Positions 11,400 through 52,380 of a stretch of 58,138 nucleotides of DNA are shown piece after piece; position 1 is the stretch's first letter, and every line of letters starts with the position of its first letter. This DNA is from Chiloscyllium plagiosum (taxonomy: Eukaryota). The stretch covers positions 11,971,833 through 12,029,970 of the forward strand of contig NC_057749.1 in the NCBI RefSeq assembly GCF_004010195.1. Direction: 5' to 3'. The notes beneath the pieces were generated by a model. That model was given only the letters and a program-made list of their open reading frames with translations, was not told where the DNA came from and ran no database searches. The position numbers were made by a program, and so were the translations under genes.

Positions 11400-11975
11400 A
11401 GGTGGACAAGTTAAAAATCACAACATCAGGTTATTGTCCAACAGGTTTATTTAGCAGTACAAGCTTTCAGAGCACTGCTCCTTCATCAGGTAGCTAGTGC
11501 GGCAGGATCATAGGACTCAGAATTTATAGTAAAAGGTCAGAGTGTCATACAACTGATGCGAAGTATTGAACAAACCGAGATTGGTGTTAAATCTGTAATC
11601 ACTTAGAATGGGTTGCAGGTTTCAATTCATTAATGTGTAAATCCCAGAACTTCTTTCAAGTCACATTCCCGAGATAACTAAAGTTTAAACTTTAAACTTA
11701 AATGTTAAGTTATCTCGGGAATGTGACTTGAAAGAAGTTCTGGGATTTACATATTAATGAATTAAAATCTGCAATCCCATTCTAAGTGATTAAAGTCTTA
11801 ACAGCAATCTAGGTTTGTTCAATACATCACATCAGTTGTATGAAACTTTGATCTTTTACTATAAATTCTGTGTCTATGATCCTGCCTCACTAGCTACCTG
11901 ACAAAGGAGCGGCATTCTGAAAGCTTGTACTTCCAAATAAACCTGTTGGACCATAACCTGATGTTGTGTGATGTT
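11400..11975. mobile_element. Palindromic Penelope-derived element with ~260-bp inverted arms
   Basis: 11417-11679 is the reverse complement of 11708-11972. Its terminus GTTAAAAATCACA is shared with the GIY-YIG-bearing element at 49548. Confidence 0.85.
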
Positions 11976-13333
11976 TATCTTTAAACTTAGGGTAAAGTAA
12001 AAGAGGTTGTTTGACCTGTTCTGAAGTCTGACTGATAGGATGTTTGGATGACACACTGATAAAGATTAAATGGAGGCCCAGACTGTTCTGCTGGGAACAA
12101 GGTGCATGGTGTACACCTGGGGAAAACCCAGTATTGGTGCTGGTCAAACCATTAGTTTCCAAAGCCCCAGGAAGGAGTTGAGAATATGGAAAAAAGATCT
12201 CTTCTTCATTGTCCATGTAAGTTCTAAAATAGAAACAAAACAGAAATTGCTGGAAAAATTCAGCAGGTCTGGCAACAGATTGTGTAGAGAAAATAGAGTT
12301 AATGTTTCAAGATCCAGTGACCCTTCTTTTCATGCTTTCAATACTTTTCATTGTATCTCACTACACGTGACAATAATAACTCAAATCTAACCTAATCTTC
12401 AGAACACTTTTGTTTCTGATTTCTAGCATTTGCAGGTTTTTTTTTATTTTGAATTCCAAGATAGACTTGGGTTCTAAATTTTACTTGATCAGTTTTAGTA
12501 TTTGGATACAAAGCCCATGTAATTCCTGTTACAATAGCACTTAACTTTGAGAGGAGAACGTTTCTAAGATACTCCTGAAACTCACACACCTAGTCTTCCA
12601 GAAATTAGGAGAGCAAGCAGCTCGATGTCAAAAACATCAAAAAAATGTTCACTATGTAGGAATGTACTGAGACCTCATGCTTGGATTAAAAACAAGGAAA
12701 ACTCATAAAATGAGACTAGAAACTTTACCTAAAGGGAGGGAAGTTTGTTGTTTTTGTGTTAAAAAGAAAATGGGCACATGGGTTGGGAGATGGAGATCAA
12801 TTTCAGACTGTAAAGTTGCTTACAAAAGTAGCCTTTAGTCAATAGTCCTTTTAATTAGATTAAAATCTAAAAATGTAAAATCTTAGGTGGAAACTCAATA
12901 ATTCCTGAAGACCATGTGAAATCTTGTTGTGCTGCCTTTTCAGCTATTACCTGAAGGTTCAAATTTATTTTTTAAAGGTTATTCGTCTCTACGATACCAT
13001 AAAACAAATCTCACTTCCCTTGGTATCTTAAAAACTCAGATTTTCCCATGTTCACCAATTGCTCCCAGTGCACTTAATGCAAGATGGTAAGATAAACAAT
13101 CCAGTCACTGAGAGGATTAAACAAGAGTAAATTACAAGTAAATTCCAAAAACACAGATGGGCTATGAAAGAAAATTGAACCAGCTCTTTTGGGATTTATT
13201 TATTTATTAGGATATAATAAGCATTTCATCTGGAGATTGGGGGGGAGGGTGCATGAGAACAATTCTGATTACATCGATTTTAACACAGTTGAAGATAACA
13301 ACAGGAGGAAATTCAGCAGAAGATGAGAGTAAG

Positions 13334-14484
13334 GCGTTCAACAAGGTTCCCCATGGTAGACTGGTTAGCAAGGTTAGATTTCATGGAATACAGGGAGAAC
13401 TAGCCAATTGGATACAGAACTGACTCGAAGGTAAAAGGAAGAGGGTGGTGGTGGAGGGTTGCTTTTCAGACTGGAGGCCATAGGCACACCAGTGATGTGC
13501 CGCAAGGATTGGTGCTGGATCCACTGTTTTTTGTCATTTATATAAACGATTTGGATGTGAACGTAGGAGGTATAGTTAGTAAGTTTGCAGATGACACCAA
13601 AATTGGAGGTGTAGTGGAGAGCAAAGAAGGTTACCTCAGAGTACAATAGGATCTTGATCAGATGGGCCAATGTGCTAAGGAATGGCAGATGGAGCTTAAT
13701 TTAGATAAATGTGAGGAAATCAGAGCAGGACTTATACACCGAATGGTAAGATCCTGGGGAATGTTGCTGAACAAAGAAACCTTGGAGTGCAGGTTCATAG
13801 TTCCATGAAAGTGGAGTCGCATGTAGATTGGATAGTGAAGAAGGCGTTTGGTATGCTTTCCTTGATTGGTCAGAGCATTGAGTATAGGAGTTGGGAGGTC
13901 ATGTTGCGGCTATGCAGAACATTGGTTAGGCCACCTTTGAAATATTGCGTGCAATTCTGGTCTCCCTCCTACAGGAAGGATGTTGTGAAACTTGAAAGGG
14001 TTCAGAAAAGATTTGTAAGGATGTTGCCAGGGTGGGAGGATGTAAGCTATAGGAAGAGGCTGAATAGGTTGGGGCTGTTTTCCCTGGAGTGTTGGAGGCT
14101 GAGCGGTGACCTTATAGAGGTTTATAAAATAATGAGGGGCATGGATAGGATAAATAGACAAGGTATTTTTCCTGGGGTGGGGGAGTCCAGAATTAAAGGG
14201 CATAAGTTTAGGGTGAGAGGGGAAAGATATAAAAGGGACCTAAGGGGCAACCTTTTCATGCAGAGGGTCATGCATGTATGGAATAAGCTGCCAGAGAAAG
14301 TGGTGGAGGCTGGTATAATTACAACTTTTAAAAGGCATCTGGATGGGTATATGAATAGGAAGGATTAGAGGGATATGAGTCAAGTGCTGGCAAATGGGAC
14401 GAGATTGGGTTGGGATATCTGGTCAGCATGGATGAATTGGACCAAATGGTCTGTTTCCATGCTGTACATCTTTATAACTCAATG
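13334..14484 (+). mobile_element. CR1-clade LINE 3' fragment
   Basis: ORF 13787..14368; same family as 1-1012. Confidence 0.9.
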
Positions 14485-14952: not shown

Positions 14953-15605
14953 CTGTGGGAGAGAAAAGCCAAAACTGGAGTGACAGGTTGAAGACTTAAT
15001 AAATTCAGGGATAAACCAATGAACATTTTCTTTTCAGGTTCTGTCCCTGAAGGGAGGTCTGACCCACAATGCCATGATCTTCATCACAGGGAGGGCATAG
15101 AGGAGCTCCCAAGCCGACACCAGCTGCATTAGGGATTGAACTGTGTGCTGTTCTAATCCACACTGGCCTACCCAGCCACTGAGTCTAGATTAGACTGGTG
15201 CTGGAAAAGCACAGCAGCTCAGGCAGCATCCAAGGAGCAGGAAAATCGCCGTTTCGGGCAAAAGCCCTTCATCAGGAATAGAGGGACCTTTTACCTATCC
15301 AGCCACTGAGCTAACTGGACCCGCATAAGACCGGCGTCTATGTGGTGACACTTCCGTCATGTTGTAGCCTGGAGGTATCGATAATGACAGTAGAAGGTCC
15401 AATTATTTTCCATCCAACATGTCTGACTAGCAATCTCTTCCATTCCTGGTGCCTAACATTGATGTATGTTGGAAGGATTTACAAGTTGCTCCTCCACCTT
15501 TTTGTCTGAGTTATGAATGCATCTTCATTAAGCCCCGGAGTGGGACTTAAACCTGGAATTCCTGGCTCAGAAGCAGGAACACTACCTTCTGCACCACAGG
15601 ACCTA

Positions 15606-16864: not shown

Positions 16865-17357
16865 CTGCACAGAGCAGTGGAAATGAAAGACCTGAGAGTG
16901 ACTCCTTTGTGAGTCAAAAACATTCATTTACATAGCACCTTTAACAAGTAATATCTCCCAAGGGGTGTTATCAAACACAATTTGATGGAGTATCATGAGG
17001 AAAAAGGAAAACAGGTGACTAGAAGCTTGCCAACATGCTAGGTTTAAGAAGCATCTTAAAGGAATGAGATGAGATAAAGCAGGAATCCCAGAGGCAAGGA
17101 GATTAGGCAGGCCTGAGATCAGAACTACTAGTGGAGGACCAGGTTTGGAGTGTGCAGCAACCTGCGAAGGTCGTCAGGCTGGAGAAAGTGACAGAGATAG
17201 GGAGGAGTGTAGAGACTGAAAGAGATTATAGAGATAGGGAGGGGTGTTGGAGCTGGGGGCAGTGACAGAGATAGGGAGGGGTATAGCAGCTGAAGGAGAT
17301 TACTGAGATAGGAAGGGGGTGTAGGGGCAGGAGGACGTGACAGAGGTAGGGGGGGTG

Positions 17358-18328
17358 AATGTAAGTTTGCTCACTGAGCTAGAAGGTTCGCTTTCAGACT
17401 TTTCATTACCATATGAGGTAACATCATCAGTGAGAGTCCGGTGAAGCACTGATGTTAGTGACCTGCTTTCTATTTATGTATTTAGGTTTCCTTGGGTTGG
17501 TGATGTCATTTCCTATTCTTTTTCTCCAAAGGTGGTAAATGGGGTCCAAGTGGATGTGTTTGTCGATAGAGTTTTAGTTGGAATGCCATGCTGTAAGGAA
17601 TTCTCGTGGATGTCTCTGTTTAGCTTGTCCTAGAGTATATATGTTGTCCCAGTTGCAGTGGTGTCCTTCCTCATCTTATATAAGGATACTAATGAGAGAG
17701 GGTCATGTCTTTTTGTGGCTGGTTGATGTTCATGTATCCTGGCGGCTAGTTTTTTGCCTGTTTGTCCAATGTAGCGTTTGTTACAATTCTTGCAAGGTAC
17801 TTTGCAAATGACATTAGTTTTGCTTGTTGTCTGTATGGGGTCTTTTAAGTTCATTAGCTGCTGTTTTAGTGGGCTACTATGATGCCAAGGGATCTGAGTA
17901 GTCTGGCAGTCATTTCTGAGATGTCTTTGATGTAGGGGAGAGTGGCTAGGGTTTCTAGATGCATTTTGTCTGCTTGTTTGCGTTTGTTGCTGAGAATCGG
18001 TGGATTGTGTTCACTGAGTACCCGTTCTTTTTGAATACGCTGTATAGGTGATTTTTCTCTGCTCTTCATAGTTCCTCTGTGCTGCAGTGTGTGGTGGCTC
18101 ATTGAAATAATGTGCTAATGCAGCTTCATTTGTGGATGTTGGGATGATTGCTTCTGGCGTTCAGTATTTGGTCTGTACGTGTTGTTTTCCTGTAGACGCT
18201 GGTTTGAAGTTCCCCATTGACTGTTCACTCTACTGTGACATCTAGGAATGGCAGTTTTTTGTTGTTTTCCTCCTCTGTTGTGAATTTTATGCCAGTAAGG
18301 GTATTATTGATGGTCTTGAAGGTCTCTG
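17358..18328 (-). mobile_element. Penelope-like retroelement fragment (RT C-terminus, GIY-YIG endonuclease, terminal repeat)
   Basis: LPFLDV and TLPYIKDISE motifs; NVICKVPCKNCNKRYIGQT is a GIY-YIG motif. Confidence 0.85.
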
Positions 18329-18523
18329 GTCAGAACTACCAGAGGAGGACCGGGTTTGGAGTGTGCAGCCATCTCAGAAGGTCATCAGGCTAGAGGAGGT
18401 GATAGAGATAAGGAGGTATAGGGGCTGGAAGAAGTAACAGAGGTAGGTAGGAGTGTAGATACTGGAGGAGGTGACAGAGATAGTGAGGGCTGTGTAGGGG
18501 ATGAAGCAGGTGACAGATAGGGA

Positions 18524-18746
18524 GTCATGATTTGGAGAGGCCGGTGTTGGACTGGGGTGTACAAAGTTAAAAATCACATAACACCAGGTTATAGTCCAAC
18601 AGGTTTATTTTGGAGCGCTGCTCCTTCATCAGGTAGTTGTGCAGTATTCTCCACAACCACCTGATGAAGGACCAGTGCTCCAATAGCTAGTGCTTCCAAA
18701 TAAACCTGTTAGATTAAAATCTGGTGTGTGATTTTTAACTTTGTAC
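18524..18746. mobile_element. Short palindromic Penelope-derived element; relatives at 46820-46903, 49165-49270, 51247-51452 and 52150-52380
   Basis: Inverted termini AAAGTTAAAAATCACA...TGTGATTTTTAACTTT. Confidence 0.8.
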
Positions 18747-19269
18747 AGATAGGAAGGGCTGTGTAGGAGATGGAGTAGGTGACAGAGATAGGGAGGAGTA
18801 TAGAGACTGGAGGAGATTCCAGAGTTGGGAAGGGTTTGGCGCTGAATAAGGTTGCAGAGATCGGGAGGGTTGAACTAGTGATTTAAAAAGGAATGGGATT
18901 TGAAAATTGAAGTGCTGTCAGACTGGGCGCCTGTGCAAATCAGCAAGCACCTGGGTAATGTGTGAACAAATGTGGAGTGAGCTAGGGCTGGGACAGCAGA
19001 GTTTTCAATGAGGTCAAATTGCTCTAAGAGAGAAGCAATGCTGCAATGGCATATGCTGACTTGCAAATTCATATTTTTCTCAAATTCAGATCAAAATATA
19101 GATCAATGTAAGTGTGAACAAGTAAAGGGCTTTATAAGATCATCAGATGCTAAAATGTTGTCATACCCTTGCGTTGTTCAGGTGACACACAGTCTCACAC
19201 AGTTATGGGTTGGATAGTACTGGGTTGCTATGGGCATACTGTCAAGCTGTAAGTGATTTAAAGTTGTAC

Positions 19270-19444
19270 CCTCCTTCTGCTGAGTACTTGTGCGCAAATG
19301 CCAGGATGTCAGAAGCTCTTCCGCTACCATCACAGACCACCACCGGGACAGGAGGGTCCTCACGGAGACTCTCCAGGACAATCGATATCACATTGGGACC
19401 ACCTTCCACGATCAAACACACCACTGGTACTCCCTGGCCAAGCC
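19270..19444 (-). CDS. TRPM1: TRPM1-type coding exon 7 ([18 protein letters not shown]...KYSAEGG)
   Basis: cctag|GG...GG|gtacaa, 175 bp. Confidence 0.95.
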
Positions 19445-19819: not shown

Positions 19820-20360
19820 TGTGCTGTCCCTGTCCTGGGAGTGTTTGATGGGAACAGAGTAGAGAGTGTGTTACATTTACCTTTCCCATGCTGTCCCTTC
19901 CTGATAAAGAGCTTATGCTCGAAGTATCGATTTTCCTGCTCCTCGGATGTTGCCTGACTGGCTGTGCTTTTCTAGCACCACACTCTCGACCCATGCTGTC
20001 CCTGTGCTTGGAGTGATTGATGGGGGACAGTGTAGAGAGAGCTTTATTTTGTACTTAACTGTGTGCTGTCCTGGTTCTGGGATTGTTTACAGAGGCAGTA
20101 TAAAGAGGGCTTTACTTTCAGTTTAAAAGAGCAGAAAAAGCTTTATGTTGTAACTAAACCTGTGTCATCCCTGTCCAGAGAGTGTTTGATGGGAACGATG
20201 CATTTTACTTTCAGTTTAAATGAGTACACAGGACTTCAAGTTTACTTTCTGTTTAAAAGAGTACAGGGAGCTATACTCTGTATCTAATCCTGTGCTGTTC
20301 CTGTCCTGGAAGTGTTTGATGGGAGACAGTGTAGATGGAGCTTTACACTGTATCTAACTT
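19820..20360 (+). repeat. Degenerate tandem repeat (TGTGCTGTCCCTGTCCTGGGAGTGTTTGATGGG...), roughly 65-bp unit
   Basis: Motif recurs at about 19820, 19995, 20063, 20161 and 20291. Confidence 0.7.
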
Positions 20361-20657
20361 GTTGTGGAGGTGGAATGCTATGTTGGTGGGATTAGAAAAG
20401 TGAAATTGTCAAACTGGGAATAGTTCTATTAACTTATAGAAAAGGTAAAATGTATTGAATTTTCAGAATGATCATTGATCCTCATTGTAAAGTTGACATT
20501 CATTCCCTTTCCCAAAGAGAAACTGTGTGGATCTAAATTCCCTAAAGAAACATTATCATGAGCAATCAAAGAATCTCCAAACTTCAGATCAATTGCTTGT
20601 CTTATCAACTCTCGCTCACAAAAGCTCAATAAAACTGAAAAGTATAGAAGTGACCTG

Positions 20658-20739
20658 GTGACAATTGAGTGATCCTTTGTCCTCCTCGCCTTATGAATAT
20701 TCCCAGGCACAGGATGAGAAAGGGAAACTCACTGGCCAC
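20658..20739 (-). ncRNA. miR-204/miR-211 family precursor; predicted 5p arm at 20705-20726, UUCCCUUUCUCAUCCUGUGCCU
   Basis: 5p arm matches miR-204-5p at 20/22 with the UCCCUUU seed intact. Loop GGGAAUAUUCAU and 3' flank UCAAUUGUCAC resemble pre-miR-204. The arms pair by eye. It sits in the intron that hosts miR-211/204 in TRPM1/TRPM3, about 90 nt from the donor. Confidence 0.9.
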
Positions 20740-20827
20740 AGGGACTTGGCAAACTTCTTCTAATGTTAGCGACGAGCTGACTCGCAGTGCACACGCCGGG
20801 TACACCTTGTGCTGAAAATTTCCTTAC

Positions 20828-20999
20828 GTGTGTTGATTTTCTGCAGGGAAATATGTTTCTCCAGTTGTCGCCGGAGCCTAACCTCAGCTCCATACTTGCC
20901 CAGGCTGCCATTATCAGCCAGGATGAAGTGAGTGTGTGTGTTGCTCAGCACCGTCAGTTTACTTAGAGGGTTTGACATTGTTTGATAGGGTTTGGTAAC
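20828..20999 (-). CDS. TRPM1: TRPM1-type coding exon 6 ([15 protein letters not shown]...LQKINTR)
   Basis: ttcaag|GTT...C|gtaagg, 172 bp; contains [10 protein letters not shown]. Confidence 0.96.
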
Positions 21000-22731: not shown

Positions 22732-23094
<363 letters not shown>

Positions 23095-25335: not shown

Positions 25336-25606
25336 TGCTTATAAAATAATCCTGTTTAGAATACTAAACAGCTCTGGATCACAAATCATTTGGATGACCA
25401 GCCACTATAAATTTACCGGAGTACAGATCTTTAATTTGAATAGACAGATTTACCTTCTTATTGCATGAAGGTTGGGCTGAAAAAGTGAGAAACCCTCTAT
25501 CTCTTTTACAATAATACATTACTGCTGTGAGACGTGACATAACACACAGCAGTCACCATTCCAATCTAACTCCAAGCGCCCTGTTCCTCATTCCTTGGAA
25601 TAATTT

Positions 25607-26861
25607 GGAAAATTATAGGCTAATTAGCCTAACTTTGGTTGTTGGTAAAATTCTAGAATCCATAATTAAGGATGAGGTTTCTAAATTCTTGAAAGAGCAG
25701 GGTCGGATTAGAACAAGTCAACATGGATTTAGTAAGGGGAGGCCATGCCTGACAAACCTGTTGGAATTCTTTGAAGAGGTGACAAGTAGGTTAGACCAGG
25801 GAAACCCAGTGGATGTGGTCTATCTAGACTTCCAAAAGACCTTTGATAAGGTGCCACACGGGAGGCTGCTGAGTAAGGTGAGGGTCCATGGTGTTCGAGG
25901 TGAGCTACTGGTATGGATTGAGGATTGGCTGGCTGATAGAAGGCAGAGAGTTGGGATAAAAGGTTCTTTTTTGGACTGGCAGCCGGTGACAAGCGGTGTC
26001 CCGCAGGGTTCAGTGTTGGGGACGTAGCAGTTCACGTTATATATTAATGATCTGGATGAAGGGACTCGGGGTAATCTAGTGAAGTTTGGCGATGATACGA
26101 AGTTAGGTGGACAGGCAGGTAGTACTGAGGAAGTGGGAAGGCTGCAGAAAGATCTAGACAGTTTGGGAGAGTGGTCCAGGAATTGGCTGATGGAATTCAA
26201 TGTGAGCAAATGCGAGGTCTTGCACTTTGGAAAAAAGAATACAAGCATGGACTACTTTCTAAACGGTGAGAAAATTCATAAAGCCAAAGTACAAAGGGAT
26301 CTGAGAGTGCTCGTTGAGGATTCTCTAAATGTAAACATGCAGGTTAGGTCCGTGATTAAGAAAGCGAATGCAATGTTGTCATTTATCTCAAGAGGGTTGG
26401 AATATAAAAGCACCGTTGTGCTACTGAGACTTTATAAAGCCCAGGTTAGGCCCCACTACTGTGTCTAGTTTTGTTCCCCACACCTCATGAAGGACATACT
26501 GGCACTGGAGCGTGTCCAGCAGAGATTCACATGGATGATCCCTGGAATGGTAGGTCTAACATATGAGGAACGGCTGAGGATCCTGGGATTGTATTCATTG
26601 GAGTTTAGAAGATTAAGGCGAGATCTAATAGAAACTTACAAGATAATACATGGCTTGGAAAGTGCTGCAGAGTGTAGTGGAGGCCGGGACGCTAAATGTC
26701 TTCAAGGCAGAGATTGATAAATTCTTGATGTCACAAGGAATTAAGGGCTACGGGGAGAATGCGGGTAAGTGGAGTTGAAATGCCCATCAGCCATGATTGA
26801 ATGGCGGAGTGGACTCGATGGGCCGAATGGCCTTACTTCCACTCCTATGTCTTATGGTCTT
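25607..26861 (+). mobile_element. CR1-clade LINE, 3' half
   Basis: [40 protein letters not shown]. Confidence 0.9.
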
Positions 26862-29513: not shown

Positions 29514-30945
29514 GACCTTAGTGTCATCCGCAAATTTATTAGCCCATCTTTCTAAGCCCTATCCAGGTCATTTATGAAAATGACAAACAGCAGTGGCCTC
29601 AAAACAGATCCTTGTGGTACACCACTAGTTACTGAACTCCAGGAACATTTCCCATCAACCACTATCCTCTGTCTTCTTTCAGCTAGCCAATTTCTGATCC
29701 AACCGCTAAATTACCTTCAATCCCATGCCTCTGTATTTTCTGCATCAGCCTACCGTGGGGCATCTTATCAAATGCTTTATTGAAATCCATATACAGCACA
29801 TCAACCACTTTATCCTCAAACACCTGTTTGGTCACCTTCTCAAAGAACTCAATAAGGTTTGGGAGGCACGACCTACCCTTCACAAAACCGTGTTGACTAT
29901 TGCTAATTAATTTATTTCTCTCTAGTTGGTTATAAGTCCTCTCTCTTGCAACCTTTTGCAACACTTTACCCACAATTGAAGTAAGACTCACTGGTCTATA
30001 ATTACCACGGTTGTCTCTACTCCTATTGTTGAACAAGGGGACAACATTTGCTATCCTCCAATCTTTTGGCACTATTCCTGTACACAATGATAACATAAAG
30101 ATCAAAGCCAAAGGCTCTGCAATACTCCGGGTGCTCCGGTTTCCCCCCACAGTCCAAAGATGTGTAGGTCAGGTGAATTGGCCATGCTAAATTGCCCATA
30201 GTGTTAGGTGCATTAGTCAGAGGGAGTTGGGTCTGGGTGGGTTACTCTTCGGAGGGTCGGTGTGGACTGGTTGGGCTGAAGAGCCTGTTTCCACACTGTA
30301 GGGAAATCTAAAAAAAAACCCATCTGGCCCAGGGGACTTAGCTATTTTCACACTTTCCAGAATTGCTAACACCTCCTCCTTGTGAACCTCAATCCCATCT
30401 AGTCTAGTAGCCTTTATCTCAATATACTCCTCGACAACATTGTCTTTTTCCAGTGTGAATACTGACCAAATATTTTCATTTAACACTTCTCCTATCTCCT
30501 CAGACTCCATGCACAACTTCCCACTACTGTCTTTGATTGGCCCTAATCTTACTCTAGTCATTCTTTTATTCCTGACATACCAATAGAAAGCTTTAGGGTT
30601 TACCTTGATTTTACCTGCCAATGACTTCTCATGTCACCTCCTGGCTCTTCTTAGCTCTCTCTTTGGGTCTTTCCTAGCTAACTTGTAACTCTCAAGCACC
30701 CTACCTGAGCCTTCATGTCTCATCTTTACATAAGCTCCTGTCTTCCTCTTGACAAGAGAGTCAACTTCTTCAGTAAACCACGGTTCCCTCACTCGAGCAC
30801 TTCCTCCCTGCCTGATGTACACACTTATCAAGGACATGCAGTAGTTGTTCCTTGAATAAGCTCCACATTTTAATTGTGCCCAATCCCTGCAGTTTCTTTC
30901 ACCATCCTCTGCATCCCAAATCTTGTCTAATTGCATCATAATTGC
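29514..30945 (-). mobile_element. CR1-clade LINE fragment with a nested partial HE1 SINE (30126-30318, +)
   Basis: GNYRPVSLTS and KSPGPDG in minus-strand ORFs; HE1 3' half inserted. Confidence 0.88.
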
Positions 30946-35904: not shown

Positions 35905-36341
35905 CCAAAATCTGGTTTCCAGCATCTGCAGTCATTGTTTTTGCCTAGTTGATTTTAACCCTACTGCGAATCCTCTTGCAAGGATGCCTGCCTTGAAGAT
36001 GTTTTCCTCCTCTCGCTACAAGAATCTCAGGGAGTCCCTCTCCCACTGCAACTCCCAGGTCATTTCTTCTGCCCTGAAGCTCTTCAACCAGGTCATGAAA
36101 CAAACTCGCTACCACAGCCACATTTGCTTCACCTATTGTACTCCATGCTACTTTCTCCCCACCCCCACCCTCCTCTAGCTTATCTCTCCACGCTTCAGGC
36201 TCCCTGCCTTTATTCCTGATGAAGGGTTTTTGTCCAAAACGTCTATTTTGCTGCTCCTCGGTTGCTGCCTGAACTGCTGTGCTCTTCCAGCACCACTAAT
36301 CCAAAATCTGGTTTCCAGCATCTGCAGTCATTGTTTTTACC
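35905..36341 (+). mobile_element. 437-bp non-autonomous Penelope-derived element with a 41-bp terminal direct repeat and a hammerhead-like motif
   Basis: Repeat at 35905-35945 and 36301-36341; 13-bp TSD CACTTAGA(A/G)TACT at 35892 and 36342. Confidence 0.8.
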
Positions 36342-37590: not shown

Positions 37591-39010
37591 TGGACTGGCT
37601 CAAAGGTAGAAGACATAGAGTGGTGGTGGAGGGTTGTTTTTCAGATTGGAGGCCTGTGACCAGTGGAGTGCCACAAGGATCGGTGCTGGGTCCATTACCT
37701 TTTGTCATTTATATAAATGATTTGGATGTGAGCATAAGAGGTACAGTTAGTAAGTTTGCACATAAGAGGTACAGTTAGTAAGTTTGCAGATGATACCAAA
37801 ATTGGAGGTGTAGTGGACAGCGATGGTGGTTACCTCAGATTACAACAGGATCTTGATCAGATGGGCCAATGAGCTGAGAAGTGGTAGATGGAGTTTAATT
37901 TAAATAAATATAAGGTGCTTCATTTTAGGAAACTAAATCTTAGCAGGACTTATACACATAATGGTAAGGTCCTAGGGAGTGTTGCTGAACTTTTATCTGA
38001 ATTAAACTCCATCTGCCACTTTTTGGCCCATTGGCCCATCTGGTCCAGATCCTGTTGTAATCTGAGGTAACCCTCTTCGCTGTCCAATACACCTCCAATT
38101 TTGGTGTCATCTGCAAAGTTACTAACTGTACCTCTTATGCTTGCATCCAAATCATTTATGTAAATGACAAAAAGTAGAGGACCCAGCACCGATCCTTGTG
38201 GCACTCCACTGGTCACAGGCCTCCAGTCTGAAAAATAACCCTCCACCACCACCCACTGTCTTCTACCTTTAAGCCAGTTCTGTATCTATATGGCTAGTTC
38301 TCCCTGTATTCCGTGAGATCTAACCTTGCTAACCAGTCTCCCATGGGGAACCTTGTCAAACGCCTTACTGAAGTCCATATAGATCACATCTACTTCTCTG
38401 CCCTCATCAAACCTCTTTGTTACTTCTACAAAACACTCAATCAAGTTTGTGGGACATGATTTCCCACGCACAAAGCCATGTTGACTATCCCTAATCAGTC
38501 CTTGCCTCTCCAAATACATGTACATTCTGTCCCTCAGGATTCCCTCCAACAACTTGCCCACCACTGACATCAGCCTCACCAGTCTATAGTTCCCTGGCTT
38601 TCCCTTACCACCCTTTTTAAACAGTGGCACCATGTTAGCCAACCTCCAGTCTTTTGGCACCTCACCTGTGACTATCGATGATACAAATATCTCAGCAAGA
38701 GGCCCAGCAAACACTTCCCTAGCTTCCCACAGAGTTATAGAGTACACCTGATCAGGTCCTGGGGATTTATCCACCTTTATGCATTTCAAGACATCCAGCA
38801 CTTCCTCCTCTGTAATATGGACATTTTGCAAGGTGTCATTTAAGAGGCATTTGGATGGGTATATGAATAGGAATGAGTTGGAGGGATATGGGCCGGGTGC
38901 TGGCAGGTGGGATTAGATTGGGTTGGAACATCTGGTCGGCATGGACGGGTTAGATCGAAGGGTCTGTTTCCGTGCTGTACATCTCTGACTCTATGACTCT
39001 ATGACTCTCT
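37591..39010. mobile_element. Composite CR1: + (37591-37990), - (37992-38838), + 3' end (38839-39010)
   Basis: Same family in opposite orientations; CTCTATGA tandem tail. Confidence 0.88.
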
Positions 39011-41135: not shown

Positions 41136-43874
41136 AGGATAATGGGAGGCAAGGCTTTCCATGTTTTTTTTCAATTCTGGATTGCTTGTCTCCATTTATA
41201 AAGCTGATTTTGCTATTTATTCTTTGAAAAGAGTAAAGCACCACTACACTCTCCCCATTACACACTCCCAGGACTGATACAGGATGGGTCAATACACCAG
41301 TCAGAAGAAACTTTCACCTCATCATTCTGTCCTGGACATTAAGCCTGATTCAGTGTAAATGTTCCTGCAACCTTAAAAGTGTGTTCAATTAGATCAGTTG
41401 GCTGGACAGCTATTTTTCAATTCTCATTCCTGATGAAGGGCTCTGGCCCGAAACATCAATGCTCCTGCTCCTTGGATGCTGCCTGACCTGCTGTGCTTTT
41501 CCAGCAACACACTCTCAGCAGTGTTTCAATGCAGAGTGTTGCTAACCATATGGGTTCAATTCCTGCACTGGCTAAAGGAGTCAAACTCTCTCCTCACCTC
41601 AGTGTGCTTGCTCAACAATCATCTTATTTTGAAAATTTGATTGAGGAATTGATTGAGTGTGAGCCAACAAGCCCTGCATGTTACCAGATATATAACCTGA
41701 CTGCATGGGATATGCACTTGTCATAACGGATTAGTGCTATTTAATTATGTTAACGCAATATTTAATTGATTAAAAACAATGGCTTTAATCCCTCTGGAAT
41801 GGGGTCATTGAGTTGATAAATATTTGGGAATGAAAGCCAGAATTTGAATTGTTTAGTTTCCAAGAGCCAGGGTACCAGATCCATTCTCCCACAGGCGTAC
41901 TGTGTGGCTGCACTATATGTTAGGGCATTTATTCCCAACTCTTTCAACAACTCAGCACACTTCAGTGAGACAAACAATTCCATAGTACACCCACTTTTTC
42001 AGCCAAATTAATTGCCCATTACTTAAATTTATAATAGTTATTGTCTTACTGGAGAGGTTTGCAACATAGTGCATACACAAGATACAGGAGAATCAAAAGC
42101 TCTGAAAAAATACACCATCTTCAACTATGAGCACCAAAACATTATTAATGTCTGCTCAATTCAACTATTTTTAACTATTTACAGACTTTAATCTGTTCCA
42201 CATGTTGCAGTCAGTTCCGAGTTTAACTTTTGCAGAAGACATTTCATTTTTGTAACACTTTGTTTAAAAGAATATTTTTTATGAAGTAAGTGAATCGATA
42301 CCTAATTGAAACTCAATGGATCAGAGCAAAACACAAAGTGGAGAAAATTGCAATTTACCTGGTTAGTGGGAGGCCTGGGTTTGCCAGTGTGTGCAGTCTG
42401 TTGATCCTGGGAGGAATTGATGAAACGGCCACCTACAAATCTTGCTCCATTGACAAGCTCTCCCTCCTGTTGTTTTCATGCACTCTCTAGTATTGGAAAC
42501 ACTAGCTCACTGAGATATGATTTCAGAAACAGCAAGAATACAGTAATAGCACAGTCAGAGATCATTGGATATTTATGTACTGCAGTCCAAACTTCGAGGT
42601 TTTGAATTATAATTTTGGTTGGACAGAATATTGTTGAAGATGAAACAATGTTTGATTACATTTGTTTTTCTTTACTTTAGTACAAAATTTCATGGCATAC
42701 TTGGACAGTTCTCACACCACACTGCTGTGGTACACTGGTTGAAGACCACCATTAAACTGTACAGGATAGAGTCAGCAGCATCCTCTGGTTAGTAAAATGA
42801 CACTTTTACACCTATAAAAATAACTAATGGCCAAAGTTTTGAAATAACTATAATCTCCTTAATCCAAAAGCCCTTGGAAGAAATAATTTTGGAATTTTTT
42901 GGATTATAATGCAATGACGCATTATTAACAATGATAAAATTATGTTTTATGTACCAAATGTTGCATCTTCCAAGTTTCTGTTCCCAAAGTACTATACTGA
43001 AATAATGCTACAATTGTGGGCAATTAGTGTTTCCTACCTGGAGAGGTTGTTGTGTATTATGTAAATGGGAAAAGGGGCAGGGATAGAAATCACAGGCTGT
43101 TCCTGGTCTGAGTCCCTGCCATGGCAACCTCCCACCCACCTCCTCCTGCCCCCACCCTGACGCCTCCCTCTTGAGCACAGAGGCTTAACCTCAGACTCAA
43201 CGACAGGGCCCTAGCCATGATTGCATGGAGAATGTGAAACTCTCTCAGACGATCACTGTTGATATCTTGCAATATTTGGCACCTTTCTTAGAGCATGGAC
43301 CTGGTTAAAGGAGGTTTGAGATAGTTCACTGGCACCAATCCTCGTTTTTTTTACCTATTGTATAGAGGATACAACACTTATAGCATCTACAGAATAGACC
43401 TTTTACCCAGAAAATAAGGTTTAGTGTAAGACAGCAATATATCCTTCCAAATCCACTACCACATCTACCTAGTAGGACAAGGGCAGCTGATACATGGGAA
43501 CACCATCAACTGCAAGTTCTTCTTCAAGCCACTTACCATCCTGATGTGGAAATGTATCGCTGTTACTTCAGTGTCACTGAAAAGTCAAAATTCCAGAAAT
43601 CATTCCCACTTAGCACTGGGGGTGTACTTCAACACACCGTCTGTACTGATTCAAGATGGTAGCTCATCACCACCTTAAGGGAAATTAGGGATGGGTAATA
43701 AAAGCCTTGGTAGCAATGCCCACATCCTGTGAATGAATTACAAAAAGTACAACAACATTTGATCAGACTAATGACCATGGCCTTATTGGTTGGTGTAGAT
43801 ACATTTGCTCCCTCCAAAAGCTGATTTAGAACTCCTGACTCCAACCGTAGACTATTGGATCAGGCGCTGACCAT

Positions 43875-44372: not shown

Positions 44373-46903
44373 TTATAATATTACCGGGATCAGTGAAAGG
44401 TAAGGCTGTGAGAAACGTTTCTTTACTCTGATCATCAATGTACTGACTCAGGAAGCCCGATTGGAAAGGAACATCATTTATGGTTGAACACCAAAATAGA
44501 GCCACTGCTCGTAGCGTACATCAGCTCGTTCCAGTTTGGGATTGAAAGTTCTACTTCATAAAGGGCTCAGATGATGAGTCCCGACTGGCAGGCCATTTCC
44601 TGTTACCAAGGGAACTTGTAGTCAATGAGCTCCACGGGCAGATTTATTAGTGATTCTCTGTGGGCCCTGCACAGCTTATCTCCAGACCTCATCCTGAGCT
44701 TACTATGAAAATACAATCAACATGCAGTTAGCAGCCATTGATTTTTGGTTAAATGTAGATATAGAACAGATGTCAATGTGAAATTATGTAATTTTAAATT
44801 TGACATTTGCCTCCAAATGCTCTGGTATTTTGGCAAAATAACTCAAGATTATAAAACTCAGGCTACTTTTTTTGAATAACAATCTTTTTATTCTGTAAAT
44901 CCTTGAACCATCACTGCTTCTGGCTAGGCCCACCTCATGCTCACCAAACTGAGCTATTGACAGTTTCTAGAAGGAAATGATGTGCACATGATTTCCCAGC
45001 TTTTGGTGATGGAATGGTATGAATGAGAAGGCTTGAGGGTTGGTCAAGGAAAATCTCTGTCCCAGCCACTGGTCAAAACCTCATGGCCAGACTCCTGGCC
45101 CCTGCTCATTGTGTATCCAGTACGGCACAAACTGAACATTTGCACATGTGGAATTCAGCCTGACTTTGCAGGTAAGAGGATTAGGATAAAGTTGTTTTAA
45201 GCCCCAAACATCTATTGGCAGAGGGCAGCTGTTGTATATGTGCTGCATTCCAGAAACTCATACACAGCTGGAACTTAGGGAACTGAATACCACAACTCAG
45301 GAACAACACACACCCCAGAATTCTCTTACCTCGAGGAAAGAATCTATTCCAACTTGGTGAACGATTCAGAACCACACTCCCATACTCCTACATTCCACTC
45401 TCCAACACCACAAACTCCCACCCTATCTCCTAACTCACCTCATTCCAACCCCAACATCACCTCAACCCATTCAACCCTTTCCCCACCCCTCTTCTACACC
45501 ACTACATTCCCCACCCTCAACTTCATACCACCCCCACTTCAATCCCCACCCATCCCAGAAAGGGCGATGGTGGGGAGGGGGTAGAGAATATAAGAAAAAT
45601 GGAGACTGCCACTGAACTAATTTTGCATTGAGATTGTGATATTAGTCTGGATCCTGTTGGCTCTTATTTCTCTAAACAGTCTGCACTGGGGTGTCAGCTA
45701 AAGTTTTGGGCTCAAGTCTCAGGAGGTTAGCCCAGAATCTTTCCCCACAAATGTGAGACCACCTAACAAGCCCTGAGGAAACAAGCAGAAGCAGGAACAT
45801 CAGTAATAAAAATAAAAACAGAAATTACTGGAAAAATTCAGCAGGTCTGGCAGCATCTGTGGAGAGGAACATCAATAGATGATTTCTCCTTCTTTCTTGT
45901 CCTGGGAGCACTGGGGTTAACTATACCATCCCACACCACAAACAAAAGTCATATTTGCCCATCCTGCACAAAACAAGGCTGAAAGTTAGGGCCCCTTGAG
46001 TGTGTACATCTACTAAGCTTTCAGCAAGATATGGGAACTGAAAAAGATGGGGGTTCTAAAAGAACCATTTACAAAAGAATCATTCTGTTCAGCCAGCGAC
46101 ACAACTTCTCCCAATCAGCAAGGGCTCCAAGACAGTCCTTCACAAAACATCCTGTCACTTTTCAGCTTTCCCTATAATTTAGATTCTATTTAAATCTCTT
46201 ACTTGTCTGTTCAGAGATTATCAGAGATGGGATGTGTACCTTGTCAGATGTAGCTGAACAACAAAGGCTCTGGCATCTGCTCCAAGCCTTGATGCATGGG
46301 GTTAATGAACTCGAGCCTTTGGGAGGTCTGTATTCTTGGCTCCTGGGTCAGATTCTACCCATTGAAAACTGCAGAATCATACCCTTGCTGCCCAGAAATT
46401 GCATGCCACTCCACATCCTTAAAGCTGTGAGTGGTGGACAGGGTGTTACAGTCAGCACTGAGGGAAAACACTTCTTGATCTAATCTGTGGTCAGACGCAA
46501 TAATGAATAACAACTTTACAGCCACTAACTCTGAACAGAATCAGTGGATACCAAACCAGTTCACCCTCCTCATTACAAATAGAATAGTTAAATTATAATC
46601 AATGTATTCTTCCTTGCTTTATTGAATTTCCTTTGTGCTCAACATTGCCCACTAATTTCCCAGAGAGGAGAATCCTTACTGAGAAACGGGATTGCCCAGA
46701 CACTTGATTTCCATTCATACCTTATGTCTGTCACAATTCCACAAGTGTGAACTTAAATATTAGGAATCAGTAGCAGATTCCACATCTAGCTCAAAATTGT
46801 GCTCCTTCTATGTCCATAGAGTTAAAAATCACATAACACCAGGTTATAGTCCAACAGGTTTATTTGGAAGTATTAGCTTTCGGACCGCTGCTCTTTCATC
46901 AGG

Positions 46904-47744
46904 TAGACAATAGACAATAGGTGCAGGAGTAGGCCATTCTGCCCTTCGAGCCTGCACCACCATTCAATATGATCATGGCTGATCATCTTTAATCAGTATC
47001 CTGTTCCTGCCTTATCTCCATAACCCTTGATTCCACTATCCTTGACAGCTCTATCCAACTCTTTCTTAAATGAATCCAGAGACTGGGCCTCCACTGCCCT
47101 CTGGGGCAGAGCATTCCACACAGCCACCACTCTCTGGGTGAACAAGTTTCTCCTCATCTCTGTCCTAAATGATCTACCCCGTATTTTTAAGCTGTGTCCT
47201 CACCCATCAGCGGAAACATGTTTCCTGCCTCCAGAATGTCCAATCCNNNNNNNNNNNNNNNNNNNNNNNNNNNNNNNNNNNNNNNNNNNNNNNNNNTTTT
47301 TGCTTCTATACTCAATCCCTCTTGTTATGGAGGCCAGCATGCTATTAGCCTTCTTCACTACCTGCTGTACCTGCATGCTTACCTTCATTGACTGGTGTAC
47401 AAGAACACCCAGATCTCTCTGTACTGCCCCTTTACCTAAATTGATTCCATTTAGGTAGTAATCTGCCTTCCTGTTTTTGCCACTAAAGTGAATAACCATA
47501 CATTTATCCACATTAAACTGCATGTGCCATGCATCTGACCACTCACCTAACCTGTCCAGGTCACCCTGTAATCTCCTAACATCCTCCTCACATTTCACCC
47601 TGCCACCCAGATTAGTATCATCAGCAAATTTGCTAATGTTATTACTAATACCATCTTCTATATCATTAACATATATTGTAAAAAGCTGCGGTCCCAACAC
47701 TGATCCCTGCGGTACCCCACTGGCCACTGCCTGCCATTCCGAAA
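46904..47744 (-). mobile_element. CR1 3' fragment spanning an assembly gap
   Basis: [11 protein letters not shown] and KFADDTNLGG. Confidence 0.88.
47247..47296. other. Assembly gap (50 N)
   Basis: Run of n. Confidence 1.
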
Positions 47745-49547
47745 TGGAGTGTAAACTCTTCCGTACTGAATGTGCAATTTAAGACTAGTAGGGTGGTAAT
47801 TGAACAGGTTGAATCTATCATTTGTGCAGATAGGCCATCCCTGGGCAATTATTCACATTGTAGGTAGATGCTAATGTTGTAACTGTACTGGTTCAGTTTG
47901 GTGAGGGTGTGGCTAGTCCTGTAACACATACCTTCAGCACTACTGCTGGAGTGTTCTCAGGATCACCAGCTTTGCAGAGTCCAGTGACTTCCGCCATTTG
48001 TTGATATCATATAGAGAGAATCAAATTAGCTCAAGGCTGGGATCTGTGATGCTGGGCATCTAAGGAAGTGGCACATCAGATAGGAAATGCTTCAGCCACT
48101 CTTTTGCACTAATTTGCTGGGCTCCCCATCATCAAGAATAAGGATATCTATGAAGCCTCCCCTTACAGAGAGCCATTTAATTGTCCACCACCATTCACCA
48201 CTCAATGTGGCAAGACTTTGGACTTTAGAGGTTTGATTTGTTTGATGCAGCTTCTACTGTGTTGTAGAGACACCACGCTGAAGCCTCATTTTTAGCTATG
48301 CTTGGTGCTCGCACAATCAATGTGAAAAAGAACCCTCAAACCACCCACATAGAGCAACAACCGAGAAACTGGAAACAACATTTAATACGAACAAGGGTTG
48401 TGGTACAGTGTTGTCATAGTAACTGATGCTGGTTACTGTGATCAATGCAGCTGGAATTGCAAAAGACGTGTAAACACAGCATTCACACTGACAGTGTCAA
48501 AATTATACCAACACAGTAAACAACACCCACACCAATTCTTAGCATGAGAAACATGAGTTGGTATCAAGAAACTGTGCAAGGCACTTGAGGGAAGAGAAGA
48601 GCTTGGCTTTTAAAAACCTATATGAAAGAGGAACAACAATGTGTTTCTATGGTCTTAAGATCCCAGGAAAGTGTTTTGAGTGGAAGCAGTGTGATAGTAA
48701 ATAGAAGTACAAATAACTGTCTCTGGTCACTCATTATGTGTGGTTTTTAACCTAAAAATGATGGATCTCTGTCACTGAACTCCAGCTTTCCAACACAGAA
48801 CATATACTATAGGCCCAAATCCAGGGGACTCTAAGTTGGAGCTTCCTGCTTTAACAGTAATTGATGGTGTGAAACTAGTGATGGGCTAACATGATGAGAC
48901 AGAATTCAAGGCATGACACAAAATAGCCACTACTTTGAGTATGTTTTAACTAAGGATCTGCACATGAGTTAGTAAGTGAAGCAAAACCAGAGAATCAGAG
49001 TGTGTGGCCCAGGAAGGATAACAGATAATTACATACACACAACTGGCATGCACATATAAATATATACAGATAGCAATGATCAGTGATTACTGTGATAAAG
49101 GGCACAGACAGACCATTACTCAAGACTAGGAATTTGATCTAAACATTAAGATCATAGTCAAAATTAAGTTAAAAATCACACAACAGGTTATAGTCCAACC
49201 TATTGGACTATAACCTGATGTTGTGTGATTTTTAATTTTGTCCACCCCAGTCCAACACCGGCACCTCCACTTTGTAGTCAGGATTGGTTAAGTACCCACC
49301 AGACAGTAAACCCAAGTATTCACAAGATGGCAGTGATGAGCCAAATTCTCCATTAACTCAAAAGAACTCCCTTTCCTATACACCAACTATATCTATGGAC
49401 AACAACAACCCTGCACTTATATAGCACTTTTAATGTTGTGAACCCCTTCACAAGAGACTATCAAGCAAATCTCGACAGGAGATTATAAGTAAAATTACCA
49501 AAATATTGATCAAAAAGGTACATTTTGAGGAGTGACTTAAATAATGA

Positions 49548-52050
49548 GGTTAAAAATCACACAACACCAGGTTATGGTCCAACAGATTTATTTGGAAACA
49601 CTAGCTTTTGAAGCACTGCTTCTTCATCAGGAGGTGGTGGAGAATAAGATAATAAGACACTGAATTTATAGCCAAATGAGTACAGTGTCATGGAGATGTG
49701 ATGGTAGATTAAACAATTTTAGATCAAGTTTTTCTTTTTTATAATGGGATGTGTTGGTTTCTGTTCTTTGATATGTAAATCTCAGAACTTCTTTTAAATT
49801 ACATTTTCAAGAAAGGTCTATCTTTTCTAACAATAAGTGCTATCTCAGCTCAGACAATGCATTAAGGTGTGAGGTCTGTCTGTGTCCCAATGTTGAGTTA
49901 GACTGGTTCTATTTCTAAAGTGGGATTTGCAGAGTTTTCCATGGATTCATGCAGTCTTTGAGCAAAATATAATGTAATTCTGCAAAAACAAATTCACCCC
50001 ATAAACTTATATGTGTGCATGTGTAGGAGAGACAGAGCAAGTGTGTGCTTATGAGTGCAAGTCCATGTGATAGAATGTGTGTGTGTAGGCTTGGTTAAGT
50101 TTGATGGGGTATATGCCGATGAGAGGGTGTGCACGTGGATGTGAGTGCAGTGGGTGTATGTGTGCGTATGTGAGCGAGCTTGTGTATGACAGAGTGTCTG
50201 TGTGGGTGTGTGAGTATGTAGGAGTGTGTGTGTGTGAGAGAGAGAATGTATAATACAGTGGGGTCACCTGTAGTATGACATGAATTCAAAGTCCTGATTG
50301 AGGCCATTCCCATGGGTACCGAACTTTGCTATCAGCTTCTGCTCAGACACTCTTGTGTTGTTACTTGTCCTGATGTCCACCTTGGAGGATGGTCACCCGA
50401 AGGTCCGAGGCCGAATGGCCTGGCCCACTGAAGTGTTCCCCGACTGGGAGGGTACACTCCTGCCTGGTGATTGTTGCGCGGTGTAAGTTCATCCACTGTC
50501 GTAACATCTGCCTGGTCTCACTAATTTACCATGCCTCAGGGCATCTTTGCCTGCAGTGCATGACATAGACAATGCTTGCTGAGTCTTTGCAGCCTACAAC
50601 ACATTATCAATGAGGATGAGCACCTCACCAGACCTTTCCCACGCTTCCACTTCTCACCTTTAAACAACCATCAAACCTTAAACAGATCATTGTTCGCAGC
50701 AAACTGCCCAGTCTTCAGGACAACAACACTGTCACCTCCCATCATGTATGCCACCAGCACTCATGTGACTTGGCCAATATTGTCTATCTCATACACTGCA
50801 GGTAAGGATGCCCTGAGGCATGGTATATTGGTGAGACCGAGCGGACGTTATGACAATAGGTGATTGGACACCGCCCAACAATCACCAGGCAGGGGTGTTC
50901 CCTCCCAGTCGGGGAACACTTCAGCTGTCCGGGCCATTCGGCCTCGGACTTTCGGGTGAACACCTTCCAAGGCGGACTCTGAGATAAGCAACAATGCAGA
51001 GTGGCTGAGCAGAAGCTGATAGCCATGTTTGGTACCCATGGGAATGGCCTCAACCAGGACCTTGGGTTCATGTCACACTACAGGTGACCCCACTGCACTA
51101 TACATTCTCTTACACCCACACACCCATGCAAGCCCTCTCTCATACACAAGCACTCGCTCACATGCACACACATACAACTCCCGCACTCACACCCATGCAT
51201 GCACTTTCTCCCAGGTGTATTCCCATCACACTCATACACACATTTAAATTAAAAATCACACAACACCAGGTTATAGTCCAATAGGTTTACTTGGGAGCAC
51301 ACTAGCTTTCGGAGTGCAGTTCAACCACCTGATGAAGGACCGGTGCTCCGAAAGCTAGTGTGCTTCCAATTAAGCCTGTTGGACTATAACCTGGTGTTGT
51401 GTGATTTTTAACTTTGTCCACCCCAGTCTAACACCGGCATCTCCAAATCATGACACACATTTAACCAAGCCTACACACACACTCTATCACATGCACTCAC
51501 ACCCACACACACACTCACATGCACACACTCACTCTGTCTCTCTTAAACATGCACACATATAAGTTTATGGGTGAATTTGTTTTTGCAAAATTACATTATA
51601 TTTTGCTCAAAAACTGCATGAATTCGTGTAAAACTCTGCGAATCCCACTATATAGAAATAGAACCAGTCTAACTCAACATTGGGACACAGACAGACCTCA
51701 CACCTTAATGCATTGTCTGAGCTGAGATGGCACCTATTGTTAGAAAAGATAGACCTTTCTTGAAAATGTAATTTAAAAGAAGTTCTGAGATTTACATATC
51801 AAAGAACAGAAACCAACACATCCCATTCTAAAAGATGGAAGACTTGATCTAAAATTGTTTAATCTACCATCACATTCCCATGACACTGTACTCATTTGGC
51901 TATAAATTCAGTGTCTTATTATCTTATTCTCCACAACCACTTGATAAAGGAGCAGCGCTTCAAAAGCTATTGTTTCCAAATAAATCTGTCAGACTGTAAC
52001 CTGATGTTGTGTGATTTTTAACTTTGTCCACCCCAGTCTAACACCGGGTC
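49548..52050. mobile_element. ~2.5-kb inverted-repeat Penelope-like element with a degenerate GIY-YIG region in both arms
   Basis: 49548-50574 is the reverse complement of 50780-52050, apart from a nested insert at ~51247-51455. The right arm reads NIVYLIHC...WYIGET...VGEHF...GLNQDLG with stops. Confidence 0.88.
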
Positions 52051-52380
52051 CTTCAAGTCTTACATAATTAGGACAACGACAGGGAATTCCAGAATTTAGG
52101 GTCCAGACAGCTGGAGGTCTTACTACCAAAGATGCAGTGATTAAAAATGATGAGCAGGTGCCGGTATTGGACTGGGATGGACAAAGTTAAAAATCACACA
52201 GCAACATGTTATTGTCCAACAGGTTTATTTGTAAGTACAAGATTTTGAAGCGCTGTTCCTTCGTCAGGTAGCTCCTTTGTCACTAGCTACCTGACGAAGG
52301 AACAGCGCTCTGAAAGCTTGTACTTCAAAATAAGCCTGTTGGACTGTAACCTAGTGTTGTACAATTTTTAACTTTGCCCA

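Follow-up and report, generated by a model that had tools for sequence, protein, structure and literature searches.

Probable minimal type I hammerhead sequences of Penelope-like elements in a genomic stretch of the shark Chiloscyllium plagiosum

Short motifs that resemble hammerhead ribozymes recur in a stretch of shark DNA, which raises the question of what they are and which elements brought them there. The stretch, hereafter the window, is 58,138 nucleotides (nt) long and comes from the Chiloscyllium plagiosum genome (NCBI RefSeq assembly GCF_004010195.1, contig NC_057749.1, positions 11,971,833 to 12,029,970 of the forward strand); coordinates below are window positions with the strand in brackets. 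An earlier note on this DNA proposed that several families of Penelope-derived repeats carry minimal hammerhead motifs with covarying stems. Sequence comparison indicates that the motifs, which fall into three families (A, B and C), are very probably minimal type I hammerhead sequences that form the 3'-terminal module of Penelope-like elements (PLEs) and of short, PLE-mobilised non-coding elements. The intact hammerhead is the commonest genome-wide form of each family. The window copies are dead insertions of the usual kind, marked by target-site duplications, truncated 5' ends, fold-back partners and CpG decay.

Motif families and their anatomy

The four motifs quoted in the earlier note are present letter for letter at 51326-51360(+), 11458-11492(-), 52288-52322(+) and 17394-17433(-). 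Family A accounts for three of them and the last is a family C copy. The damaged ATTC-CTGATGA-A-GGGC..GCCC-GAAA family that the note also described, here family B, was found at 15244-15280(-), 36212-36247(+) and 41425-41461(+), with damage as stated. The loose core CTGANGA..GAAA occurs 20 times in the window compared with 6.07 (standard deviation 2.48) in shuffled sequence, and none of 100 shuffles reached 20. A strict descriptor, patterned on the minimal hammerhead as published, demands 3 or more base pairs (bp) in helix I, then CUGANGA with no or one additional nt, 4 or more bp in helix II, GAAA, pairing between 15.2 and 16.2, and finally U-H. Only 11458-11492(-) satisfies it, and 200 dinucleotide shuffles of the window average 0.005 matches (one of the 200 held a match). 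When relaxed to a helix I of at least 2 bp and a helix II of at least 3 bp, with no palindrome required, the descriptor returns exactly the four quoted sites (mean 0.01 over 100 shuffles). These four copies retain the core, and the remaining window copies are mutated. Further copies, beyond those listed in the note, lie at 18617-18644(-), 46871-46902(-) and 49599-49630(-) for family A and at 19901-19932(+) for family B, together with core-mutated family A copies on opposite-strand arms at 11898-11929(+), 18661-18692(+) and 52236-52267(-). In all, 14 hammerhead-derived segments were counted in the window, of which only 11458-11492(-) is intact. Across 108 kb of unselected sequence (the window and five 10-kb stretches) there are 10 A-type, 15 B-type and 1 C-type cores and 3 strict-descriptor matches.

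All three families have a common layout: a helix I of 3-4 bp, CUGANGA, one extra base, a helix II of 4-6 bp, GAAA, a self-complementary ACGU or AGCU and H17. In family A, helix I is YAC / GUR, the first box is CUGAUGA, the extra base is A, helix II is GGAGC..GCUCY, and GAAA is followed by AGCU with A or U at H17. Family B has helix I AUUC / GAUU or GAAU, CUGAWGA, an extra A, helix II GGGC..GCCC, GAAA, ACGU and C at H17. Family C has helix I YCA / UGR, CUGAWGA, an extra U, helix II GUUACC..GGUGAC, GAAA, ACGU and, again, C at H17. The extra base is unpaired and lies between A9 and 10.1; in descriptor matches a 1-nt offset gives the best helix II in three of the four window sites and in both sites from random loci. 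At family level, stem III is reduced to a palindrome at 15.1-16.1, as the note had claimed, which replaces the helix III hairpin; within the window it is broken at 17393, 15244 and 41425.

This anatomy closely follows that of minimal hammerheads already described from animals. In the available part of Cervera and De la Pena (2014; PMC4209133), such motifs are placed in the terminal repeats (pseudo-long terminal repeats, pLTRs) of metazoan PLEs. In these motifs, as described there, helix III is missing, 15.2-16.2 is palindromic, one base is conserved between A9 and 10.1, G10.1 pairs with C11.1, and helix II is longer than the short helix I. A genome holds many families, with copies mostly single and truncated and some paired on opposite strands. 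The shark families share the type I topology and every structural feature with these motifs, and likewise occur as many families per genome, mostly as single 5'-truncated copies with some opposite-strand pairs. Family A differs from the published G10.1-C11.1 pair in that its commonest form, the 28-mer, closes helix II with G-U, although several copies have G-C; the pair is G-C in family B, and in family C it is G-C in 11 copies, G-U in 10 (CpG decay) and another combination in 5. When intact natural copies of B and C are folded to minimum energy, helices I and II form and the core stays open; in a cofold of the intact family A copy, AGC pairs with GCU between the two strands, which thermodynamically amounts to no more than a hint. 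Canonical type I hammerheads (Rfam Hammerhead_1 and relatives) have the same catalytic core, cleavage site and dimer logic as the shark motifs, which differ from them in having no helix III, no evident loop-loop tertiary contacts and no match to an Rfam model. The schistosome and newt satellite ribozymes are reportedly among these canonical relatives.

The motifs are abundant throughout the 3.56-Gb assembly, in which approximate core matches were counted on both strands with reversed-pattern controls, all of which gave 0. The 28-base family A core has 11,174 + 11,463 (= 22,637) matches at up to 2 mismatches and the family B core has 60,818 + 60,652 (= 121,470) at up to 1 mismatch; the first 100 family B matches listed are all exact and lie within the first 13.5 Mb of one contig. 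A query made from the window copy of family C has 56 + 50 (= 106) matches at up to 3 mismatches. Among the variants listed most are GAAACGTC or its CpG-decay forms, which makes GAAAAGTC in the window copy a mutated form. The earlier note had made its reading depend on the core being present in family consensus sequences, and the commonest genomic form of A, B and C indeed has the core boxes, U16.1, an H17 other than G and the type I order. Copy numbers are far above the ~4,000 in coelacanth and ~9,000 in Xenopus given in the available part of PMC4209133, with descriptors that differ between the studies.

Helices I and II share no sequence between the three families, and the core is constant. 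Among 27 family C copies anchored on a neighbouring endonuclease, 87.4% of cells are paired, compared with 30-50% when the partner is slid by 1-3 columns. The helix I pair 2.3-1.3 is U-A in 17 copies, C-G in 8 and otherwise in 2, which is one clean compensatory change. Helix II of family C varies on one side only (G-C to G-U, U-G to U-A), and in family A this same helix I pair differs between subfamilies (CAC/GUG versus UAC/GUA) on a handful of copies. The covariation claimed in the note is thus real but modest: both stems differ between families, and within family C the two-sided change amounts to one event, in stem I.

Carrier elements and insertion hallmarks

Family C is PLE-borne, and this can be seen within the window itself. 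The hammerhead lies in a segment, 17356-18326(-), that aligns over ~1 kb to other genomic copies and whose translation holds the C-terminal part of a reverse transcriptase (RT) followed by an endonuclease with ..IYKIPC..C..YIGQTGR..RI.EH.. This endonuclease, used as a query, returned 54,569 first-look candidates in the genome, and all 150 that were scored match. The Pfam GIY-YIG model matches the window open reading frame (ORF) at 17633-18010(-) and 23 of 25 related translations at an E-value of at most 0.1 (best 4.2e-5). Just upstream of the endonuclease, RVT_1 is found in locus L025 (E 8.5e-7; 29.3 bits, cut-off 29.6), and database homologues of the upstream RT part carry RVT_1 (PF00078). 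No GIY-YIG chain was matched in a PDB profile search with the endonuclease alignment, and the Pfam GIY-YIG model run against the whole genome gave one weak match among 150 scored of 14,403 candidates, which is too few to inform. A family C hammerhead occurs at a fixed distance after the endonuclease in 27 of 29 endonuclease-anchored loci.

Family B is tied to PLEs elsewhere in the genome. In two of five random 10-kb stretches its hammerhead falls within the final codons of an ORF that encodes ..IIYCIRCSRCGLLYIGETGR..EH.., with a Pfam GIY-YIG score of 24.0 bits (cut-off 22.6) for the ORF in locus L071 and an E-value of 0.2 for that in L068. A query with L071:5578-5880 brings up 127,463 first-look candidates of this endonuclease lineage in the genome. 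The 150 that were scored all have 98-100% protein identity to the query, 61 of them at 100%, 149 are without a stop, and open frames reach several hundred residues among the matches listed. Near-identity and open frames together indicate that the lineage is very young, and it is possibly still active. The window holds a non-coding family B unit, 35905-36341(+), with terminal direct repeats of ~40-50 nt (the 'tail') that lie 396 nt apart. Family B fragments at 15172-15320 and 41380-41560 lie at similar positions in tRNA-like (box A-like) heads of short interspersed nuclear elements (SINEs). The former has a 12-nt duplication and no clear duplication was found for the latter, for which a composite SINE is a possibility.

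Family A is known from non-coding copies, the longest of which have a common non-coding 5' end ~520 nt from the 3' end and are set in CA-rich DNA. Four fold-backs of this family lie in the window. In 11392-11977 the opposite arm holds the core-mutated copy 11898-11929(+), the 591-nt stretch around 11458 has a computed folding energy of -387.6 kcal/mol (z -41), and the 12-nt target-site duplication that flanks the fold-back implies that it arose in one event. In 18558-18747, the copy at 18617-18644(-) is without the GAAA..helix I half and that at 18661-18692(+) has a mutated GAAA box. In 51246-51452, the 3' tail occurs on the right arm only, and a single C-C mismatch interrupts helix II of the hammerhead at 51326-51360(+). 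In 52177-52381, the hammerhead at 52288-52322(+) has one helix II mismatch and its partner at 52236-52267(-) is core-mutated. A family A copy that follows a PLE in locus L042 was considered as a coding link and rejected because it is a separate insertion with its own duplication. Weak Rfam rows for mir-8536 (39.6 bits against 100; 11642-11745) and mir-4900 (31.1 against 60; 52246-52312), both on both strands, mark fold-back centres and not microRNA genes. Family A can be assigned to PLEs on its insertion hallmarks and its motif, and probably belongs with them. The Penelope derivation proposed in the note thus holds for family C, which has an RT/GIY-YIG remnant, and for family B, which has GIY-YIG ORFs; for family A the insertion hallmarks agree and no ORF link was found.

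The hallmarks are those reported for PLEs. In the available parts of Craig et al. (2021; PMC8557442) and Frangieh et al. (2024; PMC11167929), PLE signatures are 5' truncation, partial tandems and a neighbouring copy that is inverted and itself 5'-truncated; a 'tail' of 30-40 bp, which may or may not be present, is ascribed to two internal start sites of reverse transcription. In the window, four of the five family A insertions checked for repeats are fold-backs, and target-site duplications of 10 to ~13 nt occur at four family A and B insertions (Table 1). Two alternative 3' ends, ~30-37 nt apart, occur in families A, B and C, and head-to-tail pairs 406, 537 and 776 nt apart are present among 100 family B copies listed. 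Like the shark elements, endonuclease-bearing (EN+) PLEs as described in the same sources have a GIY-YIG domain with a CX2C..H.H motif C-terminal to the RT; both are also truncated at the 5' end, form partial tandems, have an inverted 5'-truncated partner and an optional 30-40-bp extension, and use microsatellite-like targets. The shark elements differ from the published ones in two respects. In the family B lineage the hammerhead lies in the last ORF codons, whereas the ORF of the anole element begins within the hammerhead, and families A and B are mostly short non-coding derivatives, unlike the canonical EN+ architecture. A G-rich minisatellite that repeats every 37-38 nt (17204-17355, 18450-18528, 18758-18869) hosts both the PLE copy 17356-18326 and the fold-back 18558-18747; such minisatellite and CA-rich settings fit the tandem-repeat target bias reported for PLEs.

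Table 1. Hammerhead copies, carrier insertions and host exons in the window
Feature	Coordinates	Strand	Remarks
Family A hammerhead	11458-11492	-	TAC / CTGATGA / A / GGAGC-AGT-GCTCT / GAAA / GC / TT / GTA; sole strict-descriptor pass
Family A fold-back	11392-11977		Arms ~275 nt, meeting at 11693/11694; 12-nt target-site duplication at 11380-11391 and 11978-11989
Family A fold-back	18558-18747		Arms ~90 nt, 4 nt between
Family A copy	46871-46905	-	Single, without inverted arm; two helix II mismatches; 1.1 G->A
Family A core	49599-49630	-	G12->A
Family A fold-back	51246-51452		Arms 69 nt, 31 nt between; 10-nt duplication; CA-rich repeats flanking
Family A fold-back	52177-52381		Arms 97 nt, 11 nt between
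Family B hammerhead	15244-15280	-	U16.1->G; in ~115-nt 5'-truncated insertion 15184-15298; 12-nt duplication at 15172 and 15299
Family B decayed core	19901-19932	+	7 substitutions from intact genomic copy
Family B non-coding unit	35905-36341	+	Inside LINE (long interspersed nuclear element) RT ORF; ~13-nt target-site duplication
Family B hammerhead	36212-36247	+	Dead: helix II changes, G12->A
Family B hammerhead	41425-41461	+	16.2 G->A (CpG decay), 1.1 G->A
Family C hammerhead	17393-17433	-	Helix II 6 pairs; 15.2 C->A breaks ACGU palindrome; found by relaxed descriptor
5'-truncated PLE copy carrying family C hammerhead	17356-18326	-	RT C-terminus ~17967-18326; GIY-YIG ORF 17633-18010
TRPM1a-like host exons	8381-33472	-	Residues 1-558 of shark protein named TRPM1a by NCBI

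Mechanism and alternative readings

A dimer requirement of minimal hammerheads was reported by Lunse et al. (2017), as cited in the available part of PMC6765202. In the mechanism considered here, which follows PMC4209133 and PMC6765202, a single copy would be unable to form helix III. Two sense copies, in one tandem or partial-tandem transcript or in two RNAs, could pair via the palindrome and build helix III; the paired copies would then cut after H17 and trim the element RNA to unit length. Reverse transcription might subsequently begin past the hammerhead, at either of two internal sites, which would produce the optional 30-37-nt tail.

Several results weigh against reading the motifs as hammerheads of PLEs. 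None of the Rfam hammerhead models (Hammerhead_1, Hammerhead_3, Hammerhead_II, HH9, HH10) matched in the window at the gathering score or at an E-value of at most 10, and none matched 91-nt pieces around intact A and B copies; this silence fits a motif without helix III. Pfam support for GIY-YIG lies mostly below the curated cut-off, and for family A no coding partner was found, either by tblastn of its units with six PLE proteins or among neighbouring elements. Only 5 of the 27 anchored family C copies are intact, with the others affected mostly by CpG decay at the two CpGs of ACGAAACGUC; together with the single intact segment of 14 in the window, this means that individual copies are not under selection. 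Family C pairs changed on both sides number 2, compared with a shuffle mean of 3.5 that is not exceeded, and because the copies are related by descent the compensatory change is a single event. Helix I is only 3-4 bp long, the in-vitro activity of metazoan minimal hammerheads is very low, even as dimers (PMC4209133, available part), and some PLE clades without hammerheads thrive, a paper whose authors float the possibility that hammerheads 'simply parasitize PLEs' being the source (PMC8557442, available part).

The last three points also favour the alternative that survives best, namely that the module is a 3' recognition or packaging element of PLEs, or a hitch-hiker, which looks like a hammerhead and does not cleave itself in vivo. 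On this reading, conservation of the module would come from binding by the RT or endonuclease or simply from inheritance from master copies. We consider this improbable. All core nucleotides (C3-A9, G12-A14, A15.1, U16.1 and an H17 other than G) recur in three families with unrelated helices and flanks, a compensatory U-A to C-G change occurs in helix I, and the palindrome at 15.1-16.1 is found in every family. A protein-binding site alone would not predict the core, the compensatory change or the palindrome.

Much less probable still is that LINEs mobilise families A and B as SINE-like elements, with the motif in a LINE-derived 3' tail. It could be argued that the 36212 copy lies just 3' (300 nt) of an L2/CR1-type RT ORF, that all RT ORFs in the window other than 17356-18326 are LINE-type, and that tRNA-like boxes precede the copies at 15245 and 41425. 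The LINE ORF, however, stops at 35905 and resumes past 36341, so that the family B element interrupts it with a ~13-nt duplication, and this rules out a LINE-tail reading of family B. The copy at 15244 was inserted as well, duplicating 12 nt of the tRNA-like sequence, and family B hammerheads elsewhere lie inside GIY-YIG ORFs. The 3' ends have no A-rich or microsatellite tail, and have instead two alternative ends and fold-back partners. The LINE fragments themselves lie at 1719-4112(+), 6128-7135(-), 25515-26465(+), 29686-30168(-), 34575-35900(+), 37953-38912(-) and 47203-47778(-); one has Exo_endo_phos and RVT_1 and several are of L2/CR1 type with FADDT motifs. A CTGATGA at 47624(-) represents codons of a FADDT motif in a LINE RT fragment and not a hammerhead, and a 50-N assembly gap (47247-47296) lies inside a LINE RT fragment.

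The window also contains part of a host gene. An exon at 22834-23049(-) is 100% identical to shark TRPM1a (the NCBI name), and exons run along the minus strand from 33472 to 8381, which bears out the statement that the copies at 11458, 15245 and 17394 are sense in the TRPM1 pre-mRNA. The 18617 copy is also intronic and sense, and the others lie upstream of the first coding exon. A mir-204-family hairpin (Rfam RF00646; 58.1 bits, gathering score 48.4) occurs on the gene's strand at 20654-20741(-), in the intron between TRPM1a-like exons 20826-20999 and 19269-19442. In one poly(A) single-cell RNA run (X15), only repeat-derived bins are covered between 11300 and 18800, with family B at 15065-15315 deepest (167.8, 83.3) and unique intron bins at 0. 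The repeats are thus transcribed somewhere in the genome, and the TRPM1 intron is not visibly transcribed in this sample. At 15249, the family B base and not the window base is found in 422 of 431 and in 226 of 232 RNA reads, which, together with DNA reads, marks the window copy's base as a departure from the family B form. For a second run, X16, there were 0 reads, and for X15 no pile-ups of RNA ends were listed; a poly(A) single-cell library is no decisive test of cleavage.

That sense intronic copies cut the TRPM1 pre-mRNA, alone or in trans with repeat RNA, and so regulate the gene or the mir-204-family hairpin deserves almost no credence: although four copies are intronic and sense, one of them intact, and family repeat RNA is present in the run, three of the four are damaged in the core or helix III, copies occur in both orientations and outside the coding span, and the intact 11458 copy would pair with its inverted arm in a 275-bp hairpin of the pre-mRNA (-387.6 kcal/mol), where folding predictions make a ribozyme fold unlikely. 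Weak Rfam C/D-box sRNA rows (sR14, 11.8 bits; snoU82P, 9.4 bits), obtained with the 91-nt pieces, were rejected as merely UGAUGA..CUGA letters. An open frame at 57483-58136(+), which continues past the end of the window, has a sub-threshold C2H2 zinc-finger match (E 4.3e-5).

Known systems and significance

Animal non-LTR (long terminal repeat) retrozymes, reportedly described by Cervera and De la Pena in 2020, are a further known system to compare with the short shark units. A preprint by Li, Clavereau and Pollet (2026; 10.64898/2026.07.22.740005), in its available part, records non-LTR retrozymes in one species of Chondrichthyes, with a mean consensus of 363 bp. Like the short shark units, these retrozymes are short, non-autonomous hammerhead units that have been proposed to derive from PLE pLTRs. 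Retrozymes by definition, however, form tandem arrays that hold two or more hammerheads and occur as circular RNA, whereas the window has no head-to-tail pair and only three close same-strand pairs occur among the 100 family B copies listed.

PLE minimal hammerheads (2014), their dimer requirement (2017) and the tail and fold-backs (2021, 2024) were already known. Cartilaginous fish are not named in the available text and two of the three supplements of PMC4209133, and a literature search on Penelope, shark and ribozyme found nothing on the subject. Only the copy numbers and the very young family B lineage are somewhat unexpected. The present results therefore add a host group and numbers to what is known of PLE minimal hammerheads, and not a principle. 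The scale is considerable, with more than 120,000 near-exact family B cores and one endonuclease lineage with dozens of identical copies. Standard RNA-family scans miss all of these motifs, and short fold-back PLE fragments mimic microRNA-like hairpins.

A further proposal is that this cartilaginous-fish genome hosts an unusually large and still-growing population of hammerhead PLEs and their non-coding parasites (~10^5 motifs), in which the hammerhead is intact in the youngest lineage, has been repaired by compensatory change and is hence required for propagation. We put this forward tentatively and would sooner doubt it than accept it. If it is true, the shark lineage would be a natural system for showing cleavage by minimal hammerheads in vivo, and if the young lineage is active, sharks would be well suited to testing what the hammerhead does for a PLE.

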